Positions 16,750-33,797 of a stretch of 64,000 nucleotides of DNA are shown here, in pieces (positions within the stretch are counted from its first letter, which is position 1; each line of letters starts with the position of its first letter). The position numbers were made by a program, and so were the translations under genes. Source of the stretch: an uncultured delta proteobacterium (GTDB lineage Bacteria; Desulfobacterota; Desulfobacteria; Desulfobacterales; B30-G6). The stretch spans positions 6,244-70,243 of the forward strand of contig CAWJIL010000009.1 of NCBI GenBank assembly GCA_963842925.1, in the 5' to 3' direction. The notes under the pieces were generated by a model. The model was not told the DNA's origin, searched no databases, and saw only the letters and a list, made by a program, of their open reading frames with translations.

Positions 16750-17003
16750 AATTATTCCGTCAGTTAAAACTTGGTCCATTAGGCCAGTTCAGAGATATTT
16801 GGCCATTCCGATGGTGGTCGGTACTTAATTAAATCCGAAGCACGAAATTCGAAATCCTAAACAATACCGAATGATCAAAATAACGAATGATCAAAACAAA
16901 ACCTAAGCAATACAAGTTTAAGCATTCTGCTTAAAACATTTGAGCATTTGATATTTGGATTTGTTTCGTATTTCGATATTCGGATTTAGAATTTACACAC
17001 GGT
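16750..17003 (-). repeat. RepA copy
   Basis: Contains the end module, both cgaaat-word arms and a centre like that of the 9061 copy. Confidence 0.85.
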
Positions 17004-17007
17004 GCCT

Positions 17008-18675
17008 TCACCGTACCCTGGCCTGCGCCCAAATCTTAAGTTTCTCACGGAATATCTTTGAATTGTGCCGAATATCCACCGGAAATGCTTTGTGATACAA
17101 GATGGTGTCAATTTCCTGGGTGAGGACAGACTCTTTGGCGAGTTCCAACAATTCTTCGGTAATCTTCTTTTTATTTTTCTTCTTGGGGGTCTTTTCCAGT
17201 TCAATGCAAATAACCGGTTTTTGTTTTGGGCGTGGCCGGATACCCACCAGGGCGCTTCTGAAAACCAGTGGATGGCGATTGAAGATGGCCTCGCAGGGAA
17301 TGGTAAACAGGGTCTGGGTCTCTGTTATGACGCGGTGACTTTTCCTTCCGCAAAACCAGAGTCGTTGTTCCGTGTCCATCCATCCAAGATCTCCCATACG
17401 ATGCCACAGACTGGTACTCTCTTCAATCTTGGAAAACAAGTCTTCTCTTTTTCTTTCGAAATATTGATGCGTTACCAGGTCACCCCTGACCGTGATCTCA
17501 CCAATTTCACCGTCCGGAACAATCAGATCCTCAGACCACTGGGAGATAGGCTCATCACTAATCTGGATGATACGTACCTTCAGGTCGGGCAAGACCCGAC
17601 CGACACATATGCCATATCCCTGTTCACTCAACTGACGTGTTTTGCCCAAGATCTCATGACTCCCCATGACCGAAACCGGCATGGCTTCGGTGGCACCGTA
17701 CCCGGGGAATATTTCGGTTTCAGGTTCCAGCATCTCACTGAAACGCTCCAGGTTGTCGGGCAATGCCGGCGCACCGGCCGAAATGACGCGCTTTAGTGTG
17801 GGAAGTTTGATATGTCGCGCCTGACCGTATCGTCCCACACGATCAAGAAGTGCCGGTGAGGCAAACATATTGCCTACACCATGATTCAAAATCAACTCGA
17901 TGATGCGTTCAGGATTCACCTGGGCCGGCTTGGTGGGGTCCATGTCCGGTATCACGGCTGTCATGCCAAGAGCGGGATCAAATAGCGCAAATAACGGAAA
18001 GGTCGGCAAATCGATTTCACCCGGCGTAATGTCGAATCTGTTTTTGATTTGCCGCACCTGGGCATCGAAGATGCCGTGGGTATAGACCACACCCTTTGCC
18101 GGACCTGTACTGCCGGTTGTAAAAAGAATCGCTGCTGTTTCGTCCTTCTGGGTTTTTGCAATGGGAAACGGTTTCCAGGGTGTATGACGAACATCTTCGA
18201 GTCTGGGACCTCTCCAAAACCATCGCTTTCCGATGGTTATGGCTGTGCTCAATGATTTAAAATAGCTGGGCGCACATATGCGCAGGGCATGCGCCAGGGG
18301 TAAGCCGATAAAAGCGGTCGCTTTGCTCTCTGAAAGACAGTTGAGCATCCGCTTTATCCCCATTCCCGGATCCACCATCACGGGTATTGCACCGGTTTTA
18401 AAAAGGGCAAAGGTCAGAACAAAGAATTCAAGACTTGGCTTTACCATCAATATGGTCCGGGTACCCCGTTTGATACCATGGCGAATAAGACCATGAGCCA
18501 AACAATCAGATTCCCTCTCCAGCTGTCTGAAGGTGAGGTGCGTGTAGGCAAGTCCCTTGTACCGGTTCTGCCGTAAGGGACAAATCACAGCCCTGGTGTA
18601 GGGCTGTTTACCTGCCATTTTACGAAGCAGGGATGCCACGTTCACTATTTTTTCTTCGGCGTATTCATCGGGCAT
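17008..18675 (-). CDS. oleC: OleC, AMP-dependent synthetase (beta-lactone synthetase family)
   Basis: AMP-binding motif TTGSTGPAKGV. Position between oleB and oleD. Confidence 0.8.
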   Translation of the reverse strand: MPDEYAEEKIVNVASLLRKMAGKQPYTRAVICPLRQNRYKGLAYTHLTFRQLERESDCLAHGLIRHGIKRGTRTILMVKPSLEFFVLTFALFKTGAIPVMVDPGMGIKRMLNCLSESKATAFIGLPLAHALRICAPSYFKSLSTAITIGKRWFWRGPRLEDVRHTPWKPFPIAKTQKDETAAILFTTGSTGPAKGVVYTHGIFDAQVRQIKNRFDITPGEIDLPTFPLFALFDPALGMTAVIPDMDPTKPAQVNPERIIELILNHGVGNMFASPALLDRVGRYGQARHIKLPTLKRVISAGAPALPDNLERFSEMLEPETEIFPGYGATEAMPVSVMGSHEILGKTRQLSEQGYGICVGRVLPDLKVRIIQISDEPISQWSEDLIVPDGEIGEITVRGDLVTHQYFERKREDLFSKIEESTSLWHRMGDLGWMDTEQRLWFCGRKSHRVITETQTLFTIPCEAIFNRHPLVFRSALVGIRPRPKQKPVICIELEKTPKKKNKKKITEELLELAKESVLTQEIDTILYHKAFPVDIRHNSKIFREKLKIWAQARVR

Positions 18676-18676
18676 G

Positions 18677-18711
18677 GGTAAAAAATAGGTTTTAAGTTTT
18701 AGGTTTTAGGT
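18677..18711. repeat. heptamer array (aggtttt)x5
   Basis: Lies directly upstream of the oleC start. On the coding strand it reads aaaaccta repeats. Confidence 0.9.
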
Positions 18712-18738
18712 TTTAGGTTTCAGACAGCAATCGTAGAT

Positions 18739-18920
18739 ACCCGGTTCCAAATGATCCAGCACTGATTCAACTCTCTCATGTTTTGATCATTCGAATTTGG
18801 ATCATTAGGTATTGTTTAGGATTTCGAATTTCGTGCTTCGGATTTGAGTAACCACCGCCATCGGCATAGCTAAATATCTCTAACCTGGCCCAAAGGACCC
18901 GGTTTTAAATGACGGAATAA
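18739..18920 (+). repeat. RepA partial copy (lacks the first arm)
   Basis: gatcattcgaatttggatcattaggtattgtttaggatttcgaatttcgtgcttcggattt ... ctctaacctggcccaaaggacccggtt. Confidence 0.85.
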
Positions 18921-18996
18921 ACAAAGCGCTTTCAACAGCTTATGGCTTATGGCTTACAGCTCAATGTTTTTATATTTAATTTCTGTAAGTTACCCC

Positions 18997-19914
18997 TCAA
19001 TCGCTCAATCTGTCTTCTAACATGAATTTACGGATATGGTCAATAACCGTTTCTGCTGCATCCTCCAGGACATAATGGCCGGCATCCTCAAAGGTGTGCA
19101 CCCGGGCGTCTGGAAATCGATGACGCCATTCATCGAGATAGGCCCTGGTAAAGACAAAATCTTTCATGCCCCAACAGATAAGCATGGGCAGGTCTCGCAG
19201 ACGATGTAAATCGTTCTGGACCGTTTTCACGGTCTCAAAACTCGGATCGCCTGGTTTGAGGGGGATGTCTTCTACAAATTTGAGGGTGGCAATGCGATTC
19301 TGCCAACTATTGTAAGGCGCCAATAGCCCTGATTTCACATCGTCAGGCATGCCTTTGGCCGTTGCCATGAAAAGAGCGCTGCGTGCAAAAGCGTTGAATC
19401 CCAGAACCGCCACCTTGGCAAAGGGCTTGACATGTCGGATCAATTTCAGTCTGAGGGGCAGGCTACGGTTTTGGGGAGGAAAAAACGCCGCCGTATTGAG
19501 CAGGACAATTTTATCTATGCGAGCCAAATGCCGGAGTGCATATGCAATTCCAATCATGCCGCCCCAATCGTGGAGTACAAGTGTTATTTTCTCCTTTAAT
19601 TCCAAACGGCTGATAAAACGCTCCAAATCCTTGATCCGGCGATCAAGGGTATAGTCATATTGTTCCACAGCTGGTTTGTCTGATAAGCCACAGCCTATAT
19701 GGTCCACCGCGATGGCCTGAAAGTCTGGAGAAAGCGCTTGGATAAGTCTCCGGTAGTAAAACGACCAGGTGGGATTGCCATGCACCATGATGACAGGCGA
19801 ACCCGCCCCTTCATCCACATAGTGATATTTGAAGCCATTCACATCCAGAAAATGAGATTCAAATGGGTACAGGTGCCGGAATGGAGTAAGATCGATGGAT
19901 TTGTTTTTTACCAT
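18997..19914 (-). CDS. oleB: OleB, alpha/beta-hydrolase (haloalkane-dehalogenase-like, beta-lactone decarboxylase family)
   Basis: Nucleophile motif LVLHDWGG and C-terminal His (AGHYVLED). Position between oleA and oleC. Confidence 0.8.
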   Translation of the reverse strand: MVKNKSIDLTPFRHLYPFESHFLDVNGFKYHYVDEGAGSPVIMVHGNPTWSFYYRRLIQALSPDFQAIAVDHIGCGLSDKPAVEQYDYTLDRRIKDLERFISRLELKEKITLVLHDWGGMIGIAYALRHLARIDKIVLLNTAAFFPPQNRSLPLRLKLIRHVKPFAKVAVLGFNAFARSALFMATAKGMPDDVKSGLLAPYNSWQNRIATLKFVEDIPLKPGDPSFETVKTVQNDLHRLRDLPMLICWGMKDFVFTRAYLDEWRHRFPDARVHTFEDAGHYVLEDAAETVIDHIRKFMLEDRLSD

Positions 19915-19956
19915 GATGGCTTTCTAATTCATTCTTGCATGGATGTTAACACAAGA

Positions 19957-20065
19957 GGCTATTAGGCTGTTAGACTGTTAGGCGGCTAATAGTCTAATAG
20001 TCTAATAGCCTAAAAGCCTTCTGTATACTGTTAGGCGCCTAATAGTCTAATAGCCTAAATGCCTT
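19957..20065. repeat. word hairpin (ttag / ctaa words)
   Basis: aggctattaggctgttagactgttaggcggctaatagtctaatagtctaatagcct... Confidence 0.75.
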
Positions 20066-20072
20066 CAGTTTT

Positions 20073-21113
20073 CTACCACTCAATCCCCAGCATCAAACAA
20101 TTCAATCCGCTACCAATACCCAGCATTCCCACCAGGTCATCTGTTTTGAAAAAATCACGCTCCACAGCGATGGCGGCGGTAATGGGCAGGGATACGGTGC
20201 CAATATTGCCCAGGTATTGAAAGGTGGTAAAATCACGCTGTCTGGGAATGCCGATGGACTTCAGGATCGTGTCCTGGTGGGTTGAGCCCACCTGGTGGCA
20301 GACCGTCTTGTCAGGCTGGTCTGCGGTAAGTGAAAGGGTTTTGCGAAATTCCCGGTAGGTCTCTATCCCCAGTGCAACGCCATGTTTCAAGACCCCCACA
20401 GAATCCGTGTTCATGACCTGTTTTCCCACGCTGGATACGCCACTGTCAGGTCCCCAGGTGCAAAGCTTATGATGTTCGGTGGCACATTGATACGCCCCCC
20501 CCAGGAGGCGGTGATTTTGATCAGACAGGGTCGCATCCGTCAGGAGTACGGCCACAGCTCCCGACCCCCCCGTCAGGGTAGCAACTGTCTGCTTGAATAC
20601 GTCCATGCTGCCGGCCGTCAGCATTCTTTGGATGGTACTGTCGACGATCTCACGTGCGGATTCACAGGACACCACAAGCCCGGCTGATATCTGCCCGAGT
20701 TCGATGGCATTCGCCACCTGAACCAGGCCATTCAGAATTCCAAGACAGGCATTGGAAACATCGTAAACCAGCGTGTCTGGCCCGAGACCCAGTCCATTGG
20801 ATACGGCACAGGCTGTGGCCGGTTCCAGGTTGTCGCGGCACACACCGCCGTACACCAGCATCTGGATTTTCTGAGGATCGATGCCTGCACCTGCAATGGA
20901 TTTTTCCCCCGCAAGAATCGCACCCTCTGCCATCTGGAATCCGGGATCCCAGAATCTTCTTTCACGAATCCCCGTGAGAGATTCCAGCTGCCCCTTTTGA
21001 AAATGAAGCGCATCGTACAACGGCGCCAGGCGTTTTTCCAGATCATCCGAACTCACCACATTGGGGGGTAGTTCGTATCCAAAGGAAGCGATGTTGACTT
21101 TTGAGTATTTCAT
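20073..21113 (-). CDS. oleA: OleA, FabH-like thiolase (head-to-head Claisen condensing enzyme)
   Basis: Active-site Cys context DVSNACLG. N-terminus LPPNVVSSDDLEKRLAPLYDAL...LESLTGIRERRFW is typical of OleA rather than FabH. Confidence 0.8.
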   Translation of the reverse strand: MKYSKVNIASFGYELPPNVVSSDDLEKRLAPLYDALHFQKGQLESLTGIRERRFWDPGFQMAEGAILAGEKSIAGAGIDPQKIQMLVYGGVCRDNLEPATACAVSNGLGLGPDTLVYDVSNACLGILNGLVQVANAIELGQISAGLVVSCESAREIVDSTIQRMLTAGSMDVFKQTVATLTGGSGAVAVLLTDATLSDQNHRLLGGAYQCATEHHKLCTWGPDSGVSSVGKQVMNTDSVGVLKHGVALGIETYREFRKTLSLTADQPDKTVCHQVGSTHQDTILKSIGIPRQRDFTTFQYLGNIGTVSLPITAAIAVERDFFKTDDLVGMLGIGSGLNCLMLGIEW

Positions 21114-21481
21114 TTTTTTTGGTGTTTGGTGTTTTGTGTTTGGTAGCTACCAGCAGCCTGCCAGTAGCTAATGGCTGTTTTCCTCTTCCCCTTTTATCTT
21201 CTTTCCTTCATTCCTTCTGTCTTTCTGTTCGTTGAGAACGTTAGGATCGTTGAGATCGTTAAGAACGTTTTTTGTTCAATCCGTCATCCCGGCCAAGTTC
21301 CACGAAGTGGAAGGCGAGCCGGGATCCAGTCTCAGCAAATAGCAAAGGGCAGCATCCTAGCTTTACTGTTGTTAAGTGTTAGGTTTTAGGTGTTAAGTAG
21401 GCCTTGAGCTGATTGCTAATAGCAGCATCCCAGCCTCCCAGCATCCTAGCTTCCTAGCATTTTCAATCTCTTCCATCGGTA
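21114..21481. repeat. 368-nt low-complexity/hairpin spacer between the megasynthase and oleA
   Basis: ggtgttt words, cgttgaga/cgttaaga words, hairpin atcccggc..gccgggat, gttagg words, agcatcc/agcctcc words. Confidence 0.7.
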
Positions 21482-24400
21482 TCACCGCTTGGTTACCGGG
21501 ATTAACCCGATGGAAAATTGTTCCATATGATAAATGGGCAGACCGTCTACTGTCAACAGGCTATCAGCGGTGAGCATGGGAAAGGGCTTTTCCTCCACGC
21601 TTGTCACCACAGCGACAAGCTCGATGCGTCTGTTTTCAGGGGTGATTTGTCCGCGATAGGTCCATTGATGATGGATATCCGATTTCAGGGTAAAACAGTG
21701 ATCATCCGCCAGATGCGGCCATCGATCCAGGGCTATGAACTTGAGCGCTTGTATCAGGGACTCCAGACCTAGTGAACCGGGACAGACCGGATCATTCAGA
21801 AAATGGGCTTTAAAAAACCATTCCTCCGGCTGAACGTCTTTTGAGGCCTTGATGAATCCGTGCCCATGGGGTCCTCCTTGCGGGAGATAGGCATCCATGT
21901 GATCGATCATGCGTATGGCCCGTCCCGGCATTACCGCATGTTCATGAACATGACCGGATAAATCGTCCGGTGCCGTTGGGGCATGATCCGGCATTGCCAT
22001 GCTTTTGCAGCCTGTCAAGTCCTCAGGCAGGGTATAGCGAGACATATGGATCTGCTGCAATCCCACCTGCTCGGCCAGCGCTTTGCGGGTAAAAAATCCA
22101 AAATGCGTCTGTCCCTGATAGACCATCTGCTGGGAAAGCAGGATCTGGAACGCATAGTGCTCGATGATCATGTCACCCGCCTCAGACACCTGCGTCAGGC
22201 GTGCACGCGTGGTCAGTGACGATCTTTTTGCAGGCACATCCCTGCTGAGTTGAGCCCTACCACCCAGATTTCTGAACCTGAGATCTTTTTCACTCCGCAG
22301 GGCCGAACCCATGTATGCCGCCAGCCAGCCACACGGCTGGAGTGCGATTTCATTTAAAACACAAAAGGGCATATTCGGCGTACGGTTGGCACGGAAATAC
22401 CAGTCATCCGGATCAATATCCATCTCGGCCTGGATCCAGCCACCGGGTTTCAATACCCAGGGTTCCGGTGCAGCTTCAACCACCCGGTCCATGAACAGAT
22501 AGGGCGGTTTTGGCAACCTGGCAATGAACCGGCGGCTATCAAATTCCCGGTAGGGTTCTCCAAAGGCTATCGAGGGCCTGCCATAGGCAAATTCTTCCAG
22601 CATTTTCCGGTTGAAAATTACGGTATCATTTCCTTTGGGTGCTGGCGGTGCTTTTTTTACAGCAGGAAAGGGCTCTTCTAGGGTGGCTGTTTCTGGAGGG
22701 ATTTTCCAAATATTTTCGATCTCTTCACGTGAGCCCCGGGTCAATTTTATGGAAATACTGTCAAAATAAACAATGTACGCACCATCGGCGGTCATGCGGG
22801 CATCGGCAAGGGCGTATGGCTCCGGGCCATATCCCATTTCCTTGATGTCGATTTCATATACCACGTGCCGGGTCTTGGGTGTTACCGGTCCACGACACTT
22901 CAACACACTTTCAACCCCCACAAGCGGTTCATAGCAGGCGTCTTCTTTGTCACTGATCCATCCGATACGCTGCAGAAATACCCGCAATGTGTGTGCACAG
23001 CATTCGTACATGAGGGTACCCGGCATGACCATGTCATCAACAAAATGACAGGTCAGGTACCAATCGTCCGGGTGAACATCTGCTTCAGCACGTATCAACC
23101 CCTTACCAAAGGTGCCCCCATAGGGATCGAATGTGAGAACACGATCGATGAGGTGCATGCGCCCGTCCGGCAGCCACAGGGAAGAAGATAGGGTTTTGCC
23201 TTGAAACGCAGCACCAAATGCCTCCTCCAGACGCCCGGATCGCAAGGCATCCAGGTCCGTCTCGGAAAACGATTCAGCGGTCACCGGGGCGGGATGCCGC
23301 CAATCAGTACCGGACGCTACTTCCTTAGGCGTGTCATCATGCCCTTCTGAAACAATACCCCCGGAGTTTCGCACCTCCTCTTCGGTAAAGAAACCCGCAC
23401 AGCCATCTTTCATTTGAATGAGCAGGTTATCATCGATAAACCCTTTGAATTTAAAAAAGAAAAGATGGGTATCCCCCTGACGGATAAACTTTTCGATCTC
23501 GATATCATATCGAATGGTCTCGCCTGGCCGTGGCAAGCCCCTGAAGAAGGTCACACAGGCATCCAGGAGACGATAAGTTCTGCGACCCTTGACCTCATGA
23601 TCGATCCCCAGGTAGGAACTGAGAAACAGATCCGCCTGACCAGCCTCCACCGATATGCAGGCCGGCGCACGGTTACCGTCCAGATACCAGGCCCCTGGAA
23701 GCACGTCGTGTTCGGTAACGATCCGGCCACTGCCCAGGGAACATTTTTCACCCACGAGGGAAACAACCCGATCCACCAGCATGAGGGGTTCGTCCGGCAG
23801 TCTCACCCGGGCATTATAGGTATCAACCACCTGGAATTCAGGACCGAATACCTCGGCAACGCAGCCCGTGGCAAAGGTAAGACAGTCTTTTCTGGAATAA
23901 AGCGGGGCAGGCTCTGTTGAAGCGGGGTGTGTACCAGGTCCTGTTGCAACCGTTCCTGTCTCATGGGCTTGCTGCATTTGTGCGCTCAGGAGTTGGGCCT
24001 GCAGTGCCATGGCCTCCTGGTAGCCCTTTGTTATCCGGCTGGAAATTTCCAAATATGATTGGTGTGCTTCGGAGCTTGTCCGGGCATTTTCCTGAACAGA
24101 CTGCATGAGCTCCCGTGCTATTTGGTGGGGAAGGCTCTCAGACGGCATCCCTGAAATAGCATCGATCGCCGTCACGGGATCAATGGCTTGTTCGATTTTC
24201 GATTCTTCCTGAAAAGACATGTCCGAATCTGTATTGCCCGGCAGTAAAGGTGGCGATCCGGGTAAGGGGAGACGGCTAGGGATGCGTATGGGAATTTGAT
24301 TCGATTCCTTTTCTTTTGACAAGGCTCGCGATTTATTCAGTGTTTCATCATAGACAGCATTCATTTCAGGTGGGTAGGATATTCTTCCATATAATTTATC

Positions 24401-27400
24401 GAGTTGGACATCGAGCATCTCGGCCCTGAGGGCTCCCAACATCTTCAAGATTGACAGATATTCGTCATCACCGTTTCGACTGACGGCAACGGCCAGATGG
24501 GGACGATCTTCAAGCGTCTGCTGTATCATTCGCGTGCAGGAGGCCCGGGGTCCCATTTCGATAAAAACACGCATACCATCCTCATAGGCCTGTTGAATGG
24601 TGCGGGTAAAATCAAAGCCATGCAGGGCCTGTTCCGTTATGGATGCTGCTGTCTTTTCACTGGTGAGATCATAGGCATGGCCCCATGCACAACTGTAGAA
24701 ACGCATATTCCCGGGTGGGTTGATGGGGTGCAGGTGGAGTTGCCGATAGTCATCCTCCACAGGTCTGACCGCATCGCAGTGGACCGTCACCACCCCGTCC
24801 AGGAAAACAGCGTTACACCCCAGTGTTTTGACAAGCGTTTGTATGGATTCCTTTTCACCGCCTATAACGGATTCCCTGGGCGAATTAATGATCAAAAGAC
24901 GTGTCATGGGGAATTGCTTTAACACCCTCTTGACCTGGTTTGCCGTTCGATCAACCGCCACCACCTGCCATTCAAATTTCTCTTGGGCTTCAATCTTCCA
25001 TGCACGCCTGAGAGAAAGGCACGGTCCGGTCAAGGCTGTCTTGAACAAGGGTGATTCAAGCATCTGTTTCAACAGGTGGTCTTGACCCTTCCAGGCACCC
25101 ATGGCAACCAATCCGGCGGTCTCCCCAAGGCTGTACCCGATGACCGCCTCAGGCGAGGCCACAAACTCCTGCATCAGTCTGGCTGTGACACACCCGTGCA
25201 TGACCTGCCCGAAAATCGCCGACAAGGGGTCGGCATGAATCTGATGCAAGGTCTGTGTTTCCCATTGGTTTTCCCAGGACATTCGATAGGGTATAAATCG
25301 TTCGGGAATCATTTGCTTTTTCAACTGTCGGGTTTCTGCATCCATCTGGCCTAAAATCAGCGGCCATTGGGTTCCCATGCCCCGTCCCATGCCAAGATAG
25401 TGATTTCCCGAACCAGGAAAAACAAAGGCCGTGCCGGCCGATGCCCCCAGGGGTTTGGGTCTGTAAAAAATATTTGCATGTCCCGGGGCGGTGTCCCGGT
25501 TCTCTGACGCGACGAGCTGTTTGGCTTTGCGAATCTCGTTTTTTGCCTGGTGGATATCTTTGATCACCAGACTGAGCGCTCTTTTTTTTCCTGCTTGAGA
25601 TGCTGTTTTTTCGTACCAGACCCGCGCCACCAGTTCCATGGGCCATCCCCTGGAAATCCCTTTTTGGATCTGATCTAAAAGCCTTCCCAGACCTTCTATG
25701 ATCTCCTGATCATGATCACCTTCCACGACAAAAAGACCGCTGCTCTGATATCCCAGGGGACGAAGCCTGTCTGATGCGACCGCCGGGTCTGAGTTTCTCC
25801 CTACTTTTTCGTATTCCTCCAAAAAAACATGGGTACAGTTGCCATCGGATGTCATGCCGCCCACACAAGCCTTGCGTGACGTGGTCTCCCGGTTTCGAAA
25901 CCAGTATTGCGCTTTGATGGGAACGTGAAAACGTTTTGCCCATGCAATTTCCCCAGGCCGTTGATAATCCGGCATGGGCGGTATGAGCTTATGGTAGAGA
26001 CACAGGCTTGTTTTCACGATGGAAGACAGGCCGGATGCGGCGCCCATGTGTCCCACAATTGGTTTGGTGCTGCCCAGGGCACAATGCAGCCCCGTATCAA
26101 TGGAAATGGCATTCAACACCTTGGATTCTGTGGCATCTTCAGTATGAATACCACTTCCGTGCGCCTCAAAAAGGCTGATGTCCGACAAGCCAATGTCAGC
26201 CTCCTGGGTGGCACGCTCTAGGGATACCTGATACGCTTCCTGCGATACACGCCCACTTTCCATTGCCATTCCAGTGGCAGATCCAAATCCCTTGACAATG
26301 GCATAGATACGATCTTTTGCAACCAGGGCATCTTCCAGACGCTTGAGTACCAGGGCTGTACCGCCTTCTCCGGGAAGGGTCCCCCGAGCCGATCTATCAA
26401 AGGGCAGGACAGATGCTGTACTGGAATAAGGCCTGATCTGATGGTGCGTGGCCAGATATCTGAGATCCCCGGTAAAATCCACAGCACCCACAAGCATCGT
26501 GTCGGACGCATTGTCCTGCAAGGCCCTCACGCCTATTTCCAGGGCCTTGATACCGGAAGCTTCTTCACACGAAACAACGAAACTGGGGCCGCCCAACAGA
26601 AATTCCTTGGCGATCCGGCTTGCAATAACACTGGGTAAAGCTCCCAGTGTCCGGTTGGAAGTCAAGGGTCGGCTGACAGATGCTTTTAAAGAGCGAATCC
26701 ATTCGGTGATATGGGGATCCTGAAGATTGAGCCCATATTTTTTTTCCCATCCACGGATGCTTCGATTAACAATCCATCTCAAATGAAAATTGGTGGCTTC
26801 AAAATCAAAATCAGCACCCACCATCACGCCCATCCTCGGGCGTTTTTCCCTGAGGGGCACACCGGCACTGATAAGGGCGCTTCTACAGAGCTTCATCATG
26901 AGGAGGTGCTGGGGTAGAATATCGGGTATTTCATTGGGGGGAATACGAAACAGACCCATATCCAAAGGGATCTCTTCCATGAATGCGCCGTGTTCCGGAA
27001 CCAACTGACTGAAATAACTATCGGCTCCGGTTTGTATGCCCCGAAGATGCGAATGGTGCTCAATGATGGATTGCCCGTTGAAAACAGCCTCCTGAAAAGC
27101 CCTCAGGGTTGACAGCTTCCCCATGGCAGCACTCATGCCGATGATTGCCACCAGCGGTTTTTCCCTTGTGGAAATTCTGGAACAGTCATTTTCATCGCCA
27201 TTCTTCAGGACGGCTTGCGTTTGCAGATTTATAGCACCCTTTTCATGCCCCTTGACTTGGGTCCATTCTTCCACAAGCATGTGGGCATTGATGCCACCGA
27301 ATCCAAATGCGCTCACAGCGGCTCGACGGGGGGTGTCTGCATCCCGCAGGGTCCAGTCGCTCACTTCCGTCTGGACCCTGAAAGGGCTACCGATCAAAGG

Positions 27401-28618
27401 GCTGTTTTCGGTTGGTTCTGTATAGTTGTTTGATGGCGGTATGTTCTTATGCTTTAATGCAAGTAATACTTTAAGTGTTCCGGCTGCCCCGGCACCTGTT
27501 AAAAGATGTCCGATGGTGGATTTGACCGAGCCGATGGGGCAGACGCCGGCATCCATTTTGATGCCCTGCCACAGGGTTGTGAGACTGCTCAGTTCGGTAT
27601 GATCCCCAAGGGGTGTGCCCGCCCCGTGACATTCAATCAGGTCCACCTGATCCGGTGTCCACCCGGTGGTGTCATAGGCCATGCGCATGGCTCTTACCTG
27701 GCCTTCACGCCTGGGTGCCAGGAGGCTGCCTCCCATATCGTTTGCAAGTCCGATGCCTTTGATGACCGCCAGAATATGGTCATGGTCTTTTTCAGCATCT
27801 TCCACACGTTTCAGCACAAACATGCCGACACCTTCCCCCACAACCAGACCGTCCGCACCTTTGTCAAAAGGCGCGCAGCGACCCGATGGCGACAAGGCAC
27901 GCAGCTGTGAAAATCCAACCTGTGTATAGAGGCAGTCAGGCCGTGACACCCCACCCACCAACATGGCATCCGCCCTGTGGTGTGACAAGGCATCACAGGC
28001 AAGCTTGAATGCTACCAACGATGATGCACAGGCTGCATCCAGTGTATAGCTACCGTTTCCAAGACCAAGTCCTTTGGCTAACAGAGCGGCCGGAAAACCG
28101 GTCATTCTGCCGGCCAGACATTGATTCCTGGTCAGGACCGCTCCCATCTCCCCGGTCATGGGGTGGAATAATTGCTTTTCGAGATAGCTCCCCAGGATTT
28201 TCTCCGCGATCAATGAGGACGCGTCCGTTGGGAGGGCAATAGCGGCAAGAATCACACCGGTTCGTTTTTTGTCGATGGATTCATGTCTGGCAGCCAAAAA
28301 TGCTTCTCTGCCAGCGTGCAGCACGATTCGGTGAAGGGGGTCAAGATCCTGAAGCATGTCTTTGTCAAGATCGAGATCATCAAAACAATAGTCCAAATCC
28401 TGGTTCAAGAGACAGGCCACCCTGGATATTGCCTTGTCAGGCTGCAGTCTTTCTGTGGTCATCATCGCCGGGTCCACCCGCCAGCGATCTTTTCCAAGCG
28501 CCTGAAAGGCATCTTTTTTGAGAACCAGATTTTCCCAGAAAGCATCCAGGCTTTTGGCACCCGGCAAGAGTCCGGCCATACTGACAATGGCGATATCGTA
28601 GGGTCTGGGCGTTTGCAT
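21482..28618 (-). CDS. PUFA/polyketide-synthase-like megasynthase, KS-CLF-AT-(FabA-type DH)x2 (PfaB/PfaC-like)
   Basis: KS Cys DAACASS (nt ~28016-28042) with HGAGT and GHLLTGAG. CLF with Cys replaced (FVVSCEEASG, ~26553-26581). AT GYSLGE (~25120-25145). FabA-type motifs CHFVDDMVMPG (~23016-23058) and AHFLNDPVCPG (~21770-21822). No DSL-type carrier motif seen. Confidence 0.85.
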   Translation of the reverse strand: MQTPRPYDIAIVSMAGLLPGAKSLDAFWENLVLKKDAFQALGKDRWRVDPAMMTTERLQPDKAISRVACLLNQDLDYCFDDLDLDKDMLQDLDPLHRIVLHAGREAFLAARHESIDKKRTGVILAAIALPTDASSLIAEKILGSYLEKQLFHPMTGEMGAVLTRNQCLAGRMTGFPAALLAKGLGLGNGSYTLDAACASSLVAFKLACDALSHHRADAMLVGGVSRPDCLYTQVGFSQLRALSPSGRCAPFDKGADGLVVGEGVGMFVLKRVEDAEKDHDHILAVIKGIGLANDMGGSLLAPRREGQVRAMRMAYDTTGWTPDQVDLIECHGAGTPLGDHTELSSLTTLWQGIKMDAGVCPIGSVKSTIGHLLTGAGAAGTLKVLLALKHKNIPPSNNYTEPTENSPLIGSPFRVQTEVSDWTLRDADTPRRAAVSAFGFGGINAHMLVEEWTQVKGHEKGAINLQTQAVLKNGDENDCSRISTREKPLVAIIGMSAAMGKLSTLRAFQEAVFNGQSIIEHHSHLRGIQTGADSYFSQLVPEHGAFMEEIPLDMGLFRIPPNEIPDILPQHLLMMKLCRSALISAGVPLREKRPRMGVMVGADFDFEATNFHLRWIVNRSIRGWEKKYGLNLQDPHITEWIRSLKASVSRPLTSNRTLGALPSVIASRIAKEFLLGGPSFVVSCEEASGIKALEIGVRALQDNASDTMLVGAVDFTGDLRYLATHHQIRPYSSTASVLPFDRSARGTLPGEGGTALVLKRLEDALVAKDRIYAIVKGFGSATGMAMESGRVSQEAYQVSLERATQEADIGLSDISLFEAHGSGIHTEDATESKVLNAISIDTGLHCALGSTKPIVGHMGAASGLSSIVKTSLCLYHKLIPPMPDYQRPGEIAWAKRFHVPIKAQYWFRNRETTSRKACVGGMTSDGNCTHVFLEEYEKVGRNSDPAVASDRLRPLGYQSSGLFVVEGDHDQEIIEGLGRLLDQIQKGISRGWPMELVARVWYEKTASQAGKKRALSLVIKDIHQAKNEIRKAKQLVASENRDTAPGHANIFYRPKPLGASAGTAFVFPGSGNHYLGMGRGMGTQWPLILGQMDAETRQLKKQMIPERFIPYRMSWENQWETQTLHQIHADPLSAIFGQVMHGCVTARLMQEFVASPEAVIGYSLGETAGLVAMGAWKGQDHLLKQMLESPLFKTALTGPCLSLRRAWKIEAQEKFEWQVVAVDRTANQVKRVLKQFPMTRLLIINSPRESVIGGEKESIQTLVKTLGCNAVFLDGVVTVHCDAVRPVEDDYRQLHLHPINPPGNMRFYSCAWGHAYDLTSEKTAASITEQALHGFDFTRTIQQAYEDGMRVFIEMGPRASCTRMIQQTLEDRPHLAVAVSRNGDDEYLSILKMLGALRAEMLDVQLDKLYGRISYPPEMNAVYDETLNKSRALSKEKESNQIPIRIPSRLPLPGSPPLLPGNTDSDMSFQEESKIEQAIDPVTAIDAISGMPSESLPHQIARELMQSVQENARTSSEAHQSYLEISSRITKGYQEAMALQAQLLSAQMQQAHETGTVATGPGTHPASTEPAPLYSRKDCLTFATGCVAEVFGPEFQVVDTYNARVRLPDEPLMLVDRVVSLVGEKCSLGSGRIVTEHDVLPGAWYLDGNRAPACISVEAGQADLFLSSYLGIDHEVKGRRTYRLLDACVTFFRGLPRPGETIRYDIEIEKFIRQGDTHLFFFKFKGFIDDNLLIQMKDGCAGFFTEEEVRNSGGIVSEGHDDTPKEVASGTDWRHPAPVTAESFSETDLDALRSGRLEEAFGAAFQGKTLSSSLWLPDGRMHLIDRVLTFDPYGGTFGKGLIRAEADVHPDDWYLTCHFVDDMVMPGTLMYECCAHTLRVFLQRIGWISDKEDACYEPLVGVESVLKCRGPVTPKTRHVVYEIDIKEMGYGPEPYALADARMTADGAYIVYFDSISIKLTRGSREEIENIWKIPPETATLEEPFPAVKKAPPAPKGNDTVIFNRKMLEEFAYGRPSIAFGEPYREFDSRRFIARLPKPPYLFMDRVVEAAPEPWVLKPGGWIQAEMDIDPDDWYFRANRTPNMPFCVLNEIALQPCGWLAAYMGSALRSEKDLRFRNLGGRAQLSRDVPAKRSSLTTRARLTQVSEAGDMIIEHYAFQILLSQQMVYQGQTHFGFFTRKALAEQVGLQQIHMSRYTLPEDLTGCKSMAMPDHAPTAPDDLSGHVHEHAVMPGRAIRMIDHMDAYLPQGGPHGHGFIKASKDVQPEEWFFKAHFLNDPVCPGSLGLESLIQALKFIALDRWPHLADDHCFTLKSDIHHQWTYRGQITPENRRIELVAVVTSVEEKPFPMLTADSLLTVDGLPIYHMEQFSIGLIPVTKR

Positions 28619-28803
28619 ATAGTTTATATTTTATCCACCAATGCCTCTTGGAACATCTTGAGGCGACAAGGTCGCATTTTAGGTTCTTCTCCCAATTAGT
28701 TGGGAGAAAGGGTTCAACTTTTTTGGAGATGATCCATATTTTATAAAATCGTATCACGATGTTATTGGGCTACATACCTGAGTCATGTTCTTATTTCAAC
28801 TGC

Positions 28804-28846
28804 GAATAAATTCGTTTCACGAATTTATATGACGCGGCTTGGCCGC
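28804..28846 (+). repeat. twin-hairpin (TH) copy followed by a T-run, orphan
   Basis: gaataaattcgt-ttca-cgaattt followed by gcggc-ttg-gccgc and T9. Confidence 0.7.
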
Positions 28847-28865
28847 TTTTTTTTTATTTCTTCAT

Positions 28866-28975
28866 TGAAAAACCGGTCCTTTGAACCAGGTCAGAGATAT
28901 TTGGCTATGCCAATGGCGGTAGTTACTTAAATCCGAAGCACGAAATTCGAAATTCGAAATTCTAAACAATATACG
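28866..28975 (-). repeat. RepA partial copy
   Basis: End module plus aaatccgaagcacgaaattcgaaattcgaaattctaaacaat. Confidence 0.8.
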
Positions 28976-29016
28976 ATTTATTCCAAACGTTTAACTCTAT
29001 GTAATTTTTAAACATT

Positions 29017-29075
29017 TCACTCGAATCCTCGAATCCTTAATTTTGGATCAACTCTTTTGGAGATGATCCAAAATT
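29017..29075 (-). repeat. RepE copy
   Basis: The reverse complement matches 1971-2038. Confidence 0.7.
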
Positions 29076-29269
29076 TTCATCATTCCAAACCTCCATTGCA
29101 GCGTACAATACTGATTTAGCATACGTACTATCTGGGAATTTTTCCAGGATTGCATTTTGCTTTGCTTATGGGAAACTGCCCATACCACGCCTGCCGGCAA
29201 AAAGGGTGGCTCTGACACTGCAATGCCTTGTCAGAAAACACATTCATATTTGAAAAGGAGGAACACACC

Positions 29270-29551
29270 ATGATGAGAACACAGAAATGGATGACGATTT
29301 TTATGCTTATAGCCCTGGTAATGCTTTCGAGCGGGTCTGTCTTCGCCGAGGAGCAGGGAAAAATCAATATCAACACGGCCACGGTCGAAGAACTGGCACA
29401 ACTGGACCGTGTCGGTCCCAGCTATGCAGATAAAATAGTTGCCTTTCGTCAGGAGAACGGTCCTTTTAAAGTGCCTGAGGACATCATGCTGGTAGCCGGT
29501 ATTGGTCAGAAAACCTTTGAAATCAACAAAGACAGGATCGTGGTCAAATAA
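29270..29551 (+). CDS. comEA: ComEA-like helix-hairpin-helix DNA-binding protein
   Basis: Signal/anchor segment followed by ININTATVEELAQLDRVGPSYADKIVAFRQENGPF...GIGQKTFE. RBS aggagg precedes the ATG at 29270. Confidence 0.65.
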   Translation: MMRTQKWMTIFMLIALVMLSSGSVFAEEQGKININTATVEELAQLDRVGPSYADKIVAFRQENGPFKVPEDIMLVAGIGQKTFEINKDRIVVK

Positions 29552-29571
29552 TTACAAAGAATGGTTGAAGT

Positions 29572-29664
29572 GCGACCCCGCGGGTTCCCGCCGTATCATC
29601 TCAAAGGAGTCATTTTACTGAAGGCAATTCTGTTGCCTTTCCCGCTATTCGACCCCGCGGGGTC
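29572..29664. promoter_or_regulatory. pair of GC-rich palindromes flanking a small hairpin
   Basis: acccgcgggt (within 29572-29587) and gaccccgcggggtc (29651-29664). Hairpin aaggcaa-ttctg-ttgcctt at 29621-29639. Confidence 0.4.
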
Positions 29665-29699
29665 AGCTATTCAGATCAGGTAATGAAAAGGAGAGAACC

Positions 29700-30107
29700 A
29701 TGGACTATGCCTACCAACGACTGGACGTCTGGAAAAAGGCGGTCGATCTTTCCATCAAGGTCATTCAATGTATCGCGGAGCTAGCCGATGAGCTTGAAAG
29801 TCAGCGTCTCACAGAAGAAATTGAAATGAGTGCCGTTAATATCGCCACCAATATTGCCAAAGGCAAGGCCTGTTTGTCGGAGGAGGATTTTATTTACTAC
29901 CTGTTTTTATCCAAAAGATCCCTATACGAAACCATGACACTGTTAGAAATTCTCAAAGCGAAGCAACTGATTACAGACGAGTGCTACACAGAAATAGAAA
30001 CAAAAGGTAAGAACATCACGACCATGCTGATCGAATTTATCCGTACGGTCAAAGATACCAACAGCCCCTATCAGGCAGAAAACTATCAGGCGGCTGTTAA
30101 GACTTAA
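29700..30107 (+). CDS. four-helix-bundle protein (23S rRNA IVS / Avd-like family), copy 1
   Basis: N-terminal YQRLDVWKKAVDL motif. Size and helical pattern typical of the family. Confidence 0.75.
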   Translation: MDYAYQRLDVWKKAVDLSIKVIQCIAELADELESQRLTEEIEMSAVNIATNIAKGKACLSEEDFIYYLFLSKRSLYETMTLLEILKAKQLITDECYTEIETKGKNITTMLIEFIRTVKDTNSPYQAENYQAAVKT

Positions 30108-30318: not shown

Positions 30319-30708
30319 ATGACCTACATCTATGAAAAACTCGATGTATGGCAAAAAGCCATGCAATTTGCCGGGGATGTGATTGCATCCATCTCGATGA
30401 TAAGCAGCAAAGACCACCATCAAGAGGTGTTACAGAAAACAGAAGGCAGTGCAGCCGGCATTGCCGGTGCCATTGCCATGGGAAAATCCTACAGTTCAAA
30501 ACACGACTTTGCCAGACATCTGTATCAATCCAGGGGCGCCTTGTATCAAACCATGACCCTCCTGGAACTGTTGAAACGCAAGCGCATAATACCGGAAGAT
30601 ACCTTTGCTGATTTTGACACCAGGGCCAACCAACTGACCGCCATGTTGACCGCCCTGATCAAGTCGATCTACACACCCAAAACAGAAAATGGCAAAAAAG
30701 CATCCTAG
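30319..30708 (+). CDS. four-helix-bundle protein (23S rRNA IVS / Avd-like family), copy 2
   Basis: YEKLDVWQKAMQFAGDV motif. Paralogous to copy 1. Confidence 0.75.
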   Translation: MTYIYEKLDVWQKAMQFAGDVIASISMISSKDHHQEVLQKTEGSAAGIAGAIAMGKSYSSKHDFARHLYQSRGALYQTMTLLELLKRKRIIPEDTFADFDTRANQLTAMLTALIKSIYTPKTENGKKAS

Positions 30709-31351
30709 CCGCCGGGCTCCTATAATCAAGCCGAAGATTCTTGTGGATTACAGGGAAAAGAATTCTGGGCTTCCAAGTCTTCTGGTTGATGCAGGATTTG
30801 ACGTGGTTATAGTCAAACTGCCTTATTGTGACTACATTATTAACCATGGCATATCCATCGAAAGAAAGACCGGCAGGGATTTCGTTGTTTCAATTATAGA
30901 TGGAAGGCTGTTCGAACAAGCCAGGAAGATAAAACAATTCCTCCCTCGCCCCTTGTATCTTGTTGAGGGAAATCCATTGAATTTCAAGATCAATATTTCG
31001 AGGGATGCGGTCCTGGGAGCAGTTGTTTCTCTTCAAGCCATTTGGCAGATACCAATGATTCTTTCGGAAGATGTTGAGCAGTCATGTCACGTCATCAGTA
31101 TGATTTTCCATCAGTCCAGAAAATTACCAACTCTTGTTGAAATGAGACATGGGTATCGCCCAAAAAAATTGAGAAGTAGAAAGTTGCATCTACTTCAAGG
31201 ATTGCCGCAGGTTGGGCCTCAGCTCGCCAAACGATTACTGGATCATTTCAAATCCGTACAAAACGCTTTGAACGCAAGTGAAAAGGATCTGTTAAAGGTC
31301 CATGGGATTGGAAAAAAGAAAGCCATACTGATTAAAAAAGTGTTGACTTGA
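30689..31351 (+). CDS. ERCC4/XPF-type nuclease with a C-terminal (HhH)2 domain
   Basis: VDYRE, CDYII and ISIERKTGRDFVVSIIDGRLFEQ motifs, then LQGLPQVGPQLAKRLL...VHGIGKKKA. 20-nt overlap with the preceding gene. Confidence 0.75.
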   Translation: MAKKHPSRRAPIIKPKILVDYREKNSGLPSLLVDAGFDVVIVKLPYCDYIINHGISIERKTGRDFVVSIIDGRLFEQARKIKQFLPRPLYLVEGNPLNFKINISRDAVLGAVVSLQAIWQIPMILSEDVEQSCHVISMIFHQSRKLPTLVEMRHGYRPKKLRSRKLHLLQGLPQVGPQLAKRLLDHFKSVQNALNASEKDLLKVHGIGKKKAILIKKVLT

Positions 31352-32549: not shown

Positions 32550-33797
32550 ATGAATTCCAATCGACAGAAAATAGATCAGTTGATCCAAAAAGGTGTGAAT
32601 ATTCCCAACCCCGAAAGTGTTGAAATCGGCCAAGAAGTCAAGGTTGAAAACATATCGGATAATGGGGTCATTATCCATTCAGGGTGCCGCTTGTTTGGAA
32701 AATCAACCCTTATCATGGGACAGACACAAATCGGCTATGAATCCCCGGTCACCATCCAGGATTGCCAGGTCGGCCCCCAGGTCGCCCTCAAAGGGGGTTT
32801 TTTCAAAGAATCTGTTTTTCTGGAAAAAGCCAGTGCCGGAAGCGGATCTCATGTCAGGGAAGGGTGTATTTTTGAAGAAGAGGCCAACATTGCCCATACT
32901 GTGGGTCTCAAACAAACCATCCTGTTTCCTTTTGTAACCCTTGGCAGTCTGATCAATTTCTGTGACTGCCTCATGGCGGGGGGAACCAGCAGGAAAGATC
33001 ACAGTGAGGTCGGCAGCGCCTATATCCATTTCAATTTTACCCCCAACCAGGACAAGGCAACAGCCACGCTTCTGGGTGATGTGCCTAAAGGGGTCATGCT
33101 TGATCAATTGCCGATTTTTCTGGGAGGGCAGGGGGGTCTGGTAGGACCCAGTCGTCTGGCCTTCGGGACGGTCATTGTGGCAGGCACCCTGTTTCGAAAA
33201 GATGCGACCAAGCCCGGAAGAATGTGGTTCGAGGGTGCAGGCAAGGGGGGCAATGCCCCTTTTGTTCCCGGACTCTATCGGGGCATCAAACGCATCGCGG
33301 TGAACAACAGCCTCTATATCGGAAACCTCATCGCCCTCCTGCATTGGTATCAACACCTGCGGTCTCTTTTTATTTCAGACAAATTCCCGGAGGTACTCCA
33401 GACAGCCGTCATAGAAAAATTGCAGTTGATCATTCAAGAACGCATGCAGCGATTCAATCAACTGATCGAGAAAATGCCCTTATCCATTCAAAAATATAAG
33501 GATATTTATCACATGGACGCTGATGCAAAAATCATGGTTCAACAAAAAGAACTGCACGAAAAACAAGAGGCTGTCAACAGCTGCCTGCTTTCCATGCAGA
33601 CATACCCGGGAGACACCGCCCTGAGAGATCCATTCTTGAAACAGGCAGCACACGCCTCACAGAACAATGACAAAGAATACATCAAGACCATCCAGACCCT
33701 CGACCCCAAAGCAAAGCAGATGGGAAGCAACTGGCTTCAGGGAATCGTGGACAAAACGCTTGAGGAGGTAATGGCGATTCTGCATAGTTTCCGCTAA
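32550..33797 (+). CDS. left-handed beta-helix (hexapeptide-repeat) protein, GlmU C-terminal-like, with a helical C-terminal domain
   Basis: Repetitive [LIV]-G-x4 pattern across the N-terminal 230 aa. Lies upstream of glmM. Confidence 0.5.
   Translation: MNSNRQKIDQLIQKGVNIPNPESVEIGQEVKVENISDNGVIIHSGCRLFGKSTLIMGQTQIGYESPVTIQDCQVGPQVALKGGFFKESVFLEKASAGSGSHVREGCIFEEEANIAHTVGLKQTILFPFVTLGSLINFCDCLMAGGTSRKDHSEVGSAYIHFNFTPNQDKATATLLGDVPKGVMLDQLPIFLGGQGGLVGPSRLAFGTVIVAGTLFRKDATKPGRMWFEGAGKGGNAPFVPGLYRGIKRIAVNNSLYIGNLIALLHWYQHLRSLFISDKFPEVLQTAVIEKLQLIIQERMQRFNQLIEKMPLSIQKYKDIYHMDADAKIMVQQKELHEKQEAVNSCLLSMQTYPGDTALRDPFLKQAAHASQNNDKEYIKTIQTLDPKAKQMGSNWLQGIVDKTLEEVMAILHSFR

Follow-up and report, generated by a model that had tools for sequence, protein, structure and literature searches.

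Organization of the pfaBC-ole locus

The window (the whole 64-kb stretch of DNA that was analyzed) carries on its reverse strand one uninterrupted reading frame of 2378 aa, at positions 21482-28618. On the basis of the reading frame, Pfam and NCBIfam matches, homologues and dN/dS values, we assigned it to pfaBC, which encodes a subunit of a Pfa-type (PUFA/polyolefin) synthase with the architecture KS-CLF-AT-DH-DH. The order of domains is an active KS, a CLF-like second KS, a probable PfaB-type acyltransferase (AT) and two units that each consist of a pseudo-DH followed by a FabA-type DH.

Four co-directional genes, oleABCD, lie downstream on the same strand, in an order that was conserved in dozens of loci. 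The gene directly after pfaBC, a position it occupies in many lineages, is oleA (20073-21113), which encodes a thiolase-fold, head-to-head condensing enzyme matching NCBIfam NF006720 (468 bits, cut-off 285) as well as ACP_syn_III and ACP_syn_III_C. It is followed by oleB (18997-19914), an alpha/beta-hydrolase gene of the haloalkane-dehalogenase-like kind, assigned from its domain match and conserved position. The product of oleC (17008-18675) belongs to the AMP-dependent beta-lactone synthetase family, with 731 bits for PRK09274 (cut-off 478); the olefin beta-lactone synthetase models ranked next, with 624 and 616 bits, under their strict cut-offs (624 against 900). The product of oleD (15721-16779) is a short-chain dehydrogenase (SDR) of the 2-alkyl-3-oxoalkanoate reductase family with 3Beta_HSD and Epimerase matches, and its best match was the NCBIfam OleD model at 400 bits, under the strict cut-off of 580. 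The last gene of the operon (15212-15736, reverse strand) overlaps the end of oleD and encodes a protein with a PocR sensory domain (Pfam PocR); many loci of Desulfobacterales have it in this same place behind oleD.

The remaining neighbours relevant here, all identified with Pfam, are on the forward strand. A DHH-DHHA1-CBS gene (13820-15118) is convergent with the operon and comes after ole/PocR in several lineages, and a ResIII/DEAD helicase gene is located at 4375-5748. On the other side, a ComEA-like HHH_3 gene (29228-29551; 75 bits) is divergent from pfaBC and was a conserved upstream neighbour in relatives down to 59% PfaBC identity. A scan of positions 15000-29700 for promoters and terminators gave counts no higher than chance, and an Rfam scan of the window gave 0 matches.

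The pfaBC gene is intact and under purifying selection

Relatives of PfaBC were encoded in 296 matched stretches of species-representative genomes. The 120 best database homologues were mostly 2300-2500 aa long with the same Pfam domain set, and nearly all of them aligned over 99-100% of the window protein. The earlier note had described the protein as an unusual minimal subunit. That description was not supported, as KS-CLF-AT-DH2 is common to the 120 best matches and is the published 'pfaBC fusion', a subunit of Pfa cluster Types C, I and K (Shulse & Allen 2011, PMC3098273).

We considered whether the gene might be a remnant in decay, or might consist of separate genes joined by an assembly error or a frameshift. 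Such an origin would accord with the relative L017, which comes from a long-read MAG and has pfaBC split into two ORFs. Against it, the window gene is a single intact frame, colinear with 75 aligned full-length homologues, its catalytic residues are all invariant, and dN/dS is about 0.2 over every domain, with values of 0.13-0.24 in the KS, the CLF, the AT and both DH units when compared with six relatives. Every catalytic domain of PfaBC is under purifying selection. The fusion artefact that the earlier note had named as a possible refutation was not found, and we give next to no credence to a remnant or fusion origin, which is essentially refuted.

Catalytic domains of PfaBC

Residue conservation was assessed in 76 sequences, namely the window PfaBC and 75 full-length homologues from fetched loci. 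Pfam detected the pair ketoacyl-synt and Ketoacyl-synt_C twice. The first copy (residues 8-455; 27254-28597, reverse strand as for all the following domains) is the active KS, with the motif DAAC197ASS (Cys codon 28028-28030) and the two histidines His331 and His371; all three catalytic residues were invariant in 76/76 sequences. The second copy, detected on the isolated segment (residues 490-884; 25967-27151), is CLF-like, with Glu685 at the position of the active-site Cys (VSCE685EAS), a column occupied by E, D, G or A and never by Cys in the 76 sequences. Both domains were as the earlier note had read them by eye. The best PDB match to PfaBC covered KS and CLF together (residues 8-874, E-value 1.3e-108) and was 6riw_A, deposited under the name 'ORF10', which we take to be the KS-CLF didomain of a PUFA synthase.

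The probable PfaB-type AT occupies residues 1058-1402 (24413-25447). Acyl_transf_1 covered residues 1150-1373 with 41-49 bits against a Pfam cut-off of 32.7, and the NCBIfam model pfaB_fam covered the whole segment with 103 bits, under its cut-off of 144. The acyltransferase motif noted earlier was located at GYS1163LGE, and both this motif and His1280 were invariant across the aligned sequences. The AT is followed by an inter-domain linker (residues 1441-1574; 23897-24298) in which no Pfam domain exceeded its threshold. For residues 1441-1760, an AlphaFold model built from a 25-sequence alignment predicted a disordered Pro/Ser-rich stretch (1441-1493) and a single long helix (1496-1553), which is conserved. 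The dN/dS of the linker (0.25-0.43) was higher than that of the catalytic domains.

The C-terminal part contains four FabA-like stretches, in agreement with the two FabA-type cores, each preceded by a hot-dog-like pseudo-domain, that had been proposed. The first DH unit (22769-23755) comprises a pseudo-hot-dog (residues 1622-1751) and a FabA-type core (1816-1950, His1858), scoring 33.9 and 120.5 bits with the FabA Pfam model. The second (21524-22516) comprises a pseudo-hot-dog (2035-2169) and a core (2231-2365, His2272), scoring 30.8 and 109.3 bits. The core motifs are CH1858F and AH2272F, and both histidines were invariant in the 76 sequences. FabA ranked first in both the sequence and the fold comparisons: the cores matched PDB FabA chains by sequence, and the modelled pseudo-DH hot-dog (residues ~1575-1750) resembled FabA with a Foldseek target TM of about 0.7.

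No carrier, KR or ER domain was detected in PfaBC, and no ACP in its surroundings

Searches of PfaBC with PP-binding, KR, adh_short, ADH_zinc_N and NMO gave no match, also when the segments between domains were searched separately at E<=10, which bears out the reported absence of a phosphopantetheine site, KR and ER. DS[LIVM] strings occurred in PfaBC only at residues 1953 and 2352, which lie in the DH hot-dog units or between them. Structure prediction, which had been recommended as a check for residues ~1450-2378, was carried out for residues 1441-1760, where it placed a FabA-like hot-dog after the long helix, and the modelled region showed neither a four-helix ACP bundle nor a Rossmann fold. 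The protein ends 13 residues past the second FabA core and gave no match to the Acyltransferase (AGPAT) domain, as expected from the earlier statement that no C-terminal acyltransferase is present.

Outside the reading frame, the small ORFs flanking pfaBC gave no carrier match. Apart from the ComEA-like HHH_3 gene, which does not encode a carrier protein, the upstream gap has no real gene, in agreement with the earlier statement that the flanks hold no ORF for an ACP. Neither an ACP HMM nor E. coli AcpP found anything in a six-frame search of the whole window (best E-value 4). No pfa gene bearing an ACP, KR or ER was found in the window, which extends 21 kb on one side of pfaBC and 35 kb on the other, and in a tblastn search for pfaA or pfaD pseudogene remnants only the KS and AT of pfaBC itself matched. 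A gene for a PPTase (pfaE) was found neither in the window nor at the partner loci described below.

Separation from pfaD-pfaA is common among Desulfobacterota

We surveyed gene order in 80 species-representative genomes. In genomes labelled as other phyla, pfaA was within 700 bp upstream of pfaBC at 31/33 judgeable loci, pfaD was usually before pfaA, and oleABCD was often directly after pfaBC. Among Desulfobacterota-labelled genomes, pfaA was adjacent in 5, lay 3.7-6.2 kb away with unrelated genes in between in another 5, and was missing within at least 7 kb in 19. The ancestral order is pfaD-pfaA-pfaBC-oleABCD, which has often been broken up in Desulfobacterales, and pfaBC-ole apart from pfaD-pfaA is the commonest state among the Desulfobacterota-labelled genomes. 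This physical separation is the sole particularity of the window locus.

The missing genes are found at a partner locus in relatives

In assembly ERZ25039600, contig_2319 carries pfaBC-oleABCD-PocR-DHH, with a PfaBC 79% identical to that of the window and shared flanks. A second contig of this assembly, contig_38371, has pfaD together with a pfaA of the architecture KS-AT-ACPx2-KR-PS-DH, with two PP-binding domains and one KR. The two contigs are linked by metagenomic binning; their GC contents (48.6% and 50.0%) and tetranucleotide correlation (0.88) are compatible with, though not decisive for, a common origin. Desulfococcaceae HSG8 (GCA_030378015.1) also has both halves, contig 137 carrying pfaD-pfaA and contig 140 carrying pfaBC. 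Orphan loci, at which pfaD-pfaA occurs and pfaBC does not, were L087, L088, L172 and many metagenome loci, with one more (P0177) from an unrelated assembly. No PfaA of Desulfonema magnum appeared among the best 120 matches to a D. limicola query, a result that is uninformative, the nearest match being only 59% identical.

Could the lineage instead have lost pfaA and pfaD? PfaBC would then use the type II FAS AcpP together with FabG and FabI/K, as a KS/AT/FabA-like add-on feeding unsaturated acyl-ACPs to OleA. The 64 kb free of pfaA, pfaD, ACP and their remnants would fit such a loss. So would the interval from the DHH-CBS gene to the helicase, which at the paralogous locus is occupied by pfaD-pfaA and in the window by other genes, an ABC transporter among them. 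The separation is also old and stable, the flanks being the same down to 59% identity, and the FabA-type DH domains have homologues among AcpP-using enzymes. If true, PfaBC would be the first Pfa-type KS/CLF-DH megasynthase to act as a trans-acting FAS II module. However, the syntenic, 79%-identical relative has pfaD-pfaA in the same MAG, both halves occur in the HSG8 genome, orphan pfaD-pfaA loci abound within Desulfobacterales, and we know of no Pfa-type KS/CLF that works on free AcpP. We therefore regard a loss of pfaA and pfaD as very unlikely.

Our preferred explanation, which we consider very probable, is that the reading frame encodes the PfaBC of a multi-subunit, iterative Pfa-type synthase whose carrier, KR and ER act in trans, with PfaA and PfaD encoded at another locus. 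PfaBC would lack these domains because PfaA (KS-AT-ACPx2-KR-PS-DH) and PfaD (an FMN-type ER) supply them. The earlier note had argued that the enzyme must use a carrier encoded elsewhere or hand off directly to OleA, and the first of these agrees with a window devoid of ACP-, KR- and ER-bearing pfa genes. As the cluster is split and pfaD and a two-ACP pfaA lie elsewhere in the MAG of the syntenic relative, PfaA is the most likely source of the carrier. We infer that pfaD, pfaA and pfaE are present in the window's own genome.

The flanks of the two half-loci are informative about how the cluster was divided. At the partner locus, pfaA is followed by a helicase gene of which the window helicase is a paralogue, with 62% identity to the L087 helicase and 65% to that of L171; other window proteins were, by contrast, 52-94% identical to their counterparts at L002, mostly 81-94%. 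A DHH-CBS homologue 61% identical to that of the window adjoins pfaD at L087, and a deletion remnant of DHH-CBS adjoins pfaD at L171. Since paralogous flanks (a helicase, and DHH-CBS or its remnant) are found at both half-loci, these comparisons suggest that the whole pfa-ole region may have been duplicated and that reciprocal loss followed.

Proposed pathway and product

The steps that we propose, including the product and the division of labour among domains, are inferred from established Pfa and Ole biochemistry. Growing acyl chains would remain on the PfaA ACPs. The KS/CLF pair of PfaBC would carry out part of the elongation cycles and help to set chain length, and the two FabA-type DH units would dehydrate 3-hydroxyacyl-ACP and isomerise 2-trans to 3-cis, an isomerisation that would lead to methylene-interrupted cis double bonds. 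The PfaB-type AT probably functions in acyl transfer or off-loading, not in malonyl loading. OleA, encoded by the gene directly downstream, most likely takes acyl chains from the PfaA ACPs and would condense two polyunsaturated chains head-to-head, the chain taken in Shewanella being 16:4. OleD would then reduce the condensation product, OleC would form a beta-lactone and OleB would decarboxylate it, giving a very-long-chain polyolefin of the C31:9 type. OleA is known to draw on Pfa ACP domains (PMC6463001), and Geobacter bemidjiensis, with the tandem pfaD-A-BC-oleABCD-pfaE, makes the C31:9 polyolefin (PMC4882568). In the literature searched, we found no measurement of the product of any Desulfobacterales member of the clade.

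The main product of a split Pfa synthase might also be a fatty acid of the membrane, either PUFA or some other secondary lipid, the adjacency of ole being historical and not functional. In several relatives, such as Desulfonema magnum (L001) and HSG8 (L089), pfaBC is present and ole genes are not, and in Shewanella one synthase yields both EPA and the hydrocarbon precursor (PMC6463001). In contrast, pfaBC and oleA are adjacent throughout the clade of the window, on the same strand and with short gaps, the adjacency is conserved in the sampled phyla other than Desulfobacterota (e.g. Planctomycetota, Acidobacteria and Gammaproteobacteria), and Geobacter, with the same tandem, produces C31:9. These observations make a membrane lipid as main product very unlikely and favour synthesis of a polyolefin by the split synthase and OleABCD.

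Relation to known Pfa systems

The Type I 'pfa-like' cluster of G. bemidjiensis, other Deltaproteobacteria and Planctomycetes has the same fused KS-CLF-AT-DH2 followed by oleA-D, and its hosts, like the lineage of the window, are strict anaerobes. The window differs in that pfaD and pfaA (and pfaE, if present) lie outside the cluster and the 64 kb, and in the extra PocR-domain gene after oleD. The Type C cluster of the Desulfobacterales sulfate reducer Desulfatibacillum alkenivorans AK-01 has the same pfaBC domain order, but there the pfa genes are clustered, with pfaD at the 3' end, whereas the window lineage probably has two loci.

The gammaproteobacterial PfaC (KS-CLF-DH2) of Shewanella, Moritella and Photobacterium shares with PfaBC the KS/CLF didomain and two FabA-type DH units, each with a pseudo-domain. 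The gammaproteobacterial PfaC/PfaB pair likewise needs the PfaA ACPs and PfaD, and has a functional link to OleABCD. However, the window AT is part of the fused protein, where it lies between CLF and DH, and in Gammaproteobacteria it resides on a separate PfaB, and the ole genes are adjacent in the window and unlinked in Shewanella. Myxobacterial Pfa3 (KS-CLF-AT-DH2-AGPAT) and Schizochytrium ORFB/ORFC likewise combine a KS-CLF-AT core with paired FabA-type DH domains; PfaBC differs from them by having no C-terminal AGPAT (1-acylglycerol-3-phosphate acyltransferase) and no ER.

Implications

Because its carrier-bearing partner genes have most likely moved elsewhere in the genome, PfaBC is a real finding and not a new kind of enzyme, and the mechanistic picture of Pfa synthases is unchanged by it. 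In annotation work, a Pfa-type megasynthase that lacks ACP, KR and ER is to be read as half of a split synthase, neither defective nor exotic. In Desulfobacterales, pfaBC-ole and pfaD-pfaA should be sought at separate loci before polyolefin or PUFA synthesis is called incomplete, and cluster tools that score contiguity will under-call the pathway in sediment sulfate reducers. Duplication followed by reciprocal loss, if true, would provide a tidy case of cluster splitting in which function was never lost.

Results

The pfaBC ORF (21482-28618, - strand), which codes for a KS-CLF-AT-DH-DH subunit of a Pfa-type synthase, is a single unbroken frame of 2378 codons. Pfam and NCBIfam models placed an active ketosynthase (KS) at residues 8-455, a second KS-like domain (CLF) at 490-884, an acyltransferase (AT; Acyl_transf_1 1150-1373, PfaB-family model 1058-1402) and four FabA-like stretches, two weak (1622-1751 and 2035-2169) and two strong (1816-1950 and 2231-2365), arranged as two pairs of a pseudo-hot-dog and a FabA core. 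All the motifs that an earlier note had read by eye were found in place: the catalytic Cys197 (codon 28028-28030) with His331 and His371, Glu685 where the second KS would have its Cys, the AT motif GYS1163LGE, and His1858 and His2272 of the dehydratases (DH). Among the best 120 database matches, most proteins were 2300-2500 aa long and nearly all covered 99-100% of the query with identical Pfam domains; relatives were encoded in 296 matched stretches of species-representative genomes, the closest in MAGs of uncultured Desulfobacterales or 'delta proteobacterium'. When the protein was aligned with 75 homologues (n = 76), the catalytic residues were invariant and Cys never occurred at the CLF position. 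Comparison with six relatives (70-88% identical) gave dN/dS values of 0.13-0.24 in KS, CLF, AT and both DH units, and of 0.25-0.43 in the linker. Full-length homologues, invariant residues and low dN/dS make a fusion or frameshift artefact, or decay of the gene, very unlikely. Judged by these sequence comparisons, the KS, CLF, AT and two FabA-type DH units look functional and under purifying selection. At one window-clade locus from a long-read MAG (L017:9905-17064), the homologue is read as two ORFs (731 and 1436 aa) about 660 bp apart, probably because the gene was recently disrupted or because of indel errors in sequencing; the oleA of L005, too, matches only in part.

Searches of PfaBC for PP-binding, ketoreductase (KR), short-chain dehydrogenase, zinc-ADH and NMO domains gave 0 matches at E<=10, also when the inter-domain segments were searched in isolation. 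DS[LIVM] strings occur only at residues 1953 and 2352, which are positions between or inside DH hot-dog units. The AlphaFold model of residues 1441-1760 (25-sequence alignment, mean pLDDT 65.5) predicted Pro/Ser-rich disorder (1441-1493) followed by a single long helix (1496-1553) and a hot-dog fold that matched FabA structures best in the PDB (target TM ~0.7); the model contained neither a four-helix carrier bundle nor a Rossmann fold. Domain search, motif scan and linker model thus agree with the claim that the ORF lacks carrier, KR and enoylreductase (ER) domains. The same held for the gaps flanking pfaBC, said to hold no ACP: their small ORFs gave no carrier match, the sole real gene being a ComEA-like HHH_3 gene (29228-29551, +), and a six-frame scan of the 64-kb window with E. 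coli AcpP and an ACP HMM built on the carrier domains of PfaA detected no ACP (best E-value 4). These results confirmed the carrier-less state of PfaBC.

The genes oleA (20073-21113), oleB (18997-19914), oleC (17008-18675) and oleD (15721-16779) follow pfaBC on the - strand, oleA directly. A stand-alone PocR-sensory-domain gene (15212-15736, -; 174 aa) overlaps the end of oleD, and a DHH-DHHA1-CBS gene (13820-15118, +) is convergent with the operon. The window holds no further fatty-acid or polyketide synthesis genes beyond pfaBC-ole. The PocR gene is kept after oleD in many Desulfobacterales clusters (e.g. L002, L003, L009, L013, L032, L084) and was not detected in loci labelled as phyla other than Desulfobacterota; its product may serve the pfaBC-ole operon as a regulator or ligand sensor specific to the lineage. 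In one Desulfobacterales clade (L013, L018, L023, L027, L034, L035, L037, L040, L066), oleB-oleC-oleD come directly after pfaBC with no oleA between, so that oleA must lie elsewhere or have been replaced. Upstream of pfaBC, two tandem 23S-rRNA-intervening-sequence-protein (23S-rRNA-IVP) genes (29700-30107 and 30319-30708, +) and an ERCC4/HhH nuclease gene (30689-31351, +) form a block that persists down to 59% PfaBC identity. A 415-aa ORF w​ithout Pfam match (32550-33797, +) is probably a real conserved gene, because a gene of equal length is called at the same position in the pfaBC locus L002 (5502-6749).

Gene order was judged on 80 genome loci around PfaBC homologues, with phyla assigned by label. 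In 31 of the 33 judgeable non-Desulfobacterota loci (most from Planctomycetota and Acidobacteria, some from Gammaproteobacteria and other phyla), a pfaA-like gene (2000-2500 aa, ACP motifs) ends <700 bp from pfaBC; pfaD usually precedes pfaA, and oleABCD often directly follow pfaBC. The cluster is broken up in genomes labelled Desulfobacterota: pfaA adjoins pfaBC in 5, lies 3.7-6.2 kb upstream with unrelated genes between in 5, and was not found within at least 7 kb in 19. Both distant pfaA genes examined encode KS-AT-ACP-KR by Pfam, one with a PS-DH match. Some Desulfobacterales PfaA proteins of 2807-2850 aa (P0128, P0144, P0160, P0166, P0180, P0189, P0193) carry an extra FabA-type domain (PF07977) beside KS-AT-ACP-KR-PS-DH; one PfaA with this addition is from Desulfatiferula olefinivorans. 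Another rearranged state of the cluster is seen on a 382-kb metagenome contig (L103), where a pfaBC homologue (480-1838, -) lies upstream of pfaD (7515-9134) on the opposite strand, with pfaA at 10001-16282.

The separation of pfaBC-ole from pfaD-pfaA is old and stable, since the flanks are the same throughout the window clade (70-88% identical) and the sister group (~59%), with HHH_3, two 23S-rRNA-IVP genes and ERCC4 on the upstream side and ole-PocR on the downstream side. Orphan pfaD-pfaA loci without a nearby pfaBC are common in Desulfobacterales, and two single genomes were found with both halves. Desulfococcaceae bacterium HSG8 (GCA_030378015.1) has pfaD-pfaA on JAUCGG010000137.1, where unrelated genes fill the next 7.7 kb, and pfaBC on JAUCGG010000140.1. 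The more relevant case is the MAG ERZ25039600, in which contig_2319 shares the window's gene neighbourhood and has a pfaBC 79% identical to that of the window, and contig_38371 carries pfaD and a pfaA encoding KS, AT, two PP-binding domains, KR and PS-DH. The contigs are compatible in GC content and tetranucleotide usage, the same-genome link being one of binning, not proof. The proposal that the carrier is encoded elsewhere was supported by this relative's pfaA. True loss of PfaA, with PfaBC re-wired to FAS II, is highly improbable because the partner pfaD-pfaA locus sits in the same MAG as the relative's pfaBC, and the carrier-free hand-off to OleA that had also been proposed need not be invoked.

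The flanks of the half-loci bear on the origin of this split. Two metagenome loci (L135, L165) have the order pfaD, pfaA, reverse-strand helicase, pfaBC, oleA. A DHH-CBS gene follows ole/PocR in several lineages; at orphan pfaD-pfaA loci it precedes pfaD (L087, L092, L119, L124), several of these loci also having a helicase after pfaA. The two genes flank pfaD-pfaA at 1307-2605 and 16510-17916 in L087, and at 6761-7054 and 16637-18019 in L171, the partner locus in the relative's MAG, where the DHH-CBS gene is a 97-codon internal-deletion remnant (first 32 joined to last 28 residues). Between the L171 helicase and the one on the pfaBC-ole side (window 4375-5748, +), identity is only 65%, while other window proteins are 52-94%, mostly 81-94%, identical to their L002 counterparts. 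From this identity and the DHH-CBS pattern, the helicase and DHH-CBS genes of the two half-loci are probably paralogues, which suggests that the whole pfa-ole region was duplicated and that reciprocal loss then left pfaD-pfaA in one copy and pfaBC-ole in the other. The window's 8 kb between the DHH-CBS gene and helicase hold an ABC transporter, a homocysteine methyltransferase, a Usp gene and a radical-SAM gene, and no pfa remnants.

Discussion

Among solved structures, PfaBC comes closest to 6riw_A (deposited as 'ORF10'), with an alignment that spans KS and CLF (residues 8-874, E 1.3e-108); we take this chain to be a PUFA-synthase KS-CLF didomain. The architecture, which the earlier note had considered unusual, proved to be a published one: the domain order is exactly that of the 'pfaBC fusion [KS-CLF-AT-DH2]' of the Type C cluster, and Type I clusters, like which Type K is configured, also have a pfaBC fusion (Shulse & Allen, PMC3098273). 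In Geobacter bemidjiensis, which makes the C31:9 polyolefin, a tandem array comprises pfaD, A, B, C, oleA-D and pfaE (Yoshida et al., PMC4882568). [quoted passage not shown] Taken together, the structural match, the published fusion, the Geobacter tandem and the OleA-Pfa link identify the carrier-less megasynthase beside ole as a known subunit of a known system, real but ordinary.

By analogy with established Pfa and Ole biochemistry, the growing chain would be carried on the tandem ACPs of PfaA, extended by KS/CLF of PfaBC and reduced by the KR of PfaA and the ER of PfaD, with cis double bonds introduced by the FabA-type DHs of PfaBC. OleA would condense two ACP-bound polyunsaturated chains, and its product would become a long polyolefin via OleD, OleC and OleB. 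The window PfaBC is a further member of the pfaBC-fusion family, in a lineage whose pfa-ole cluster is split over two loci.
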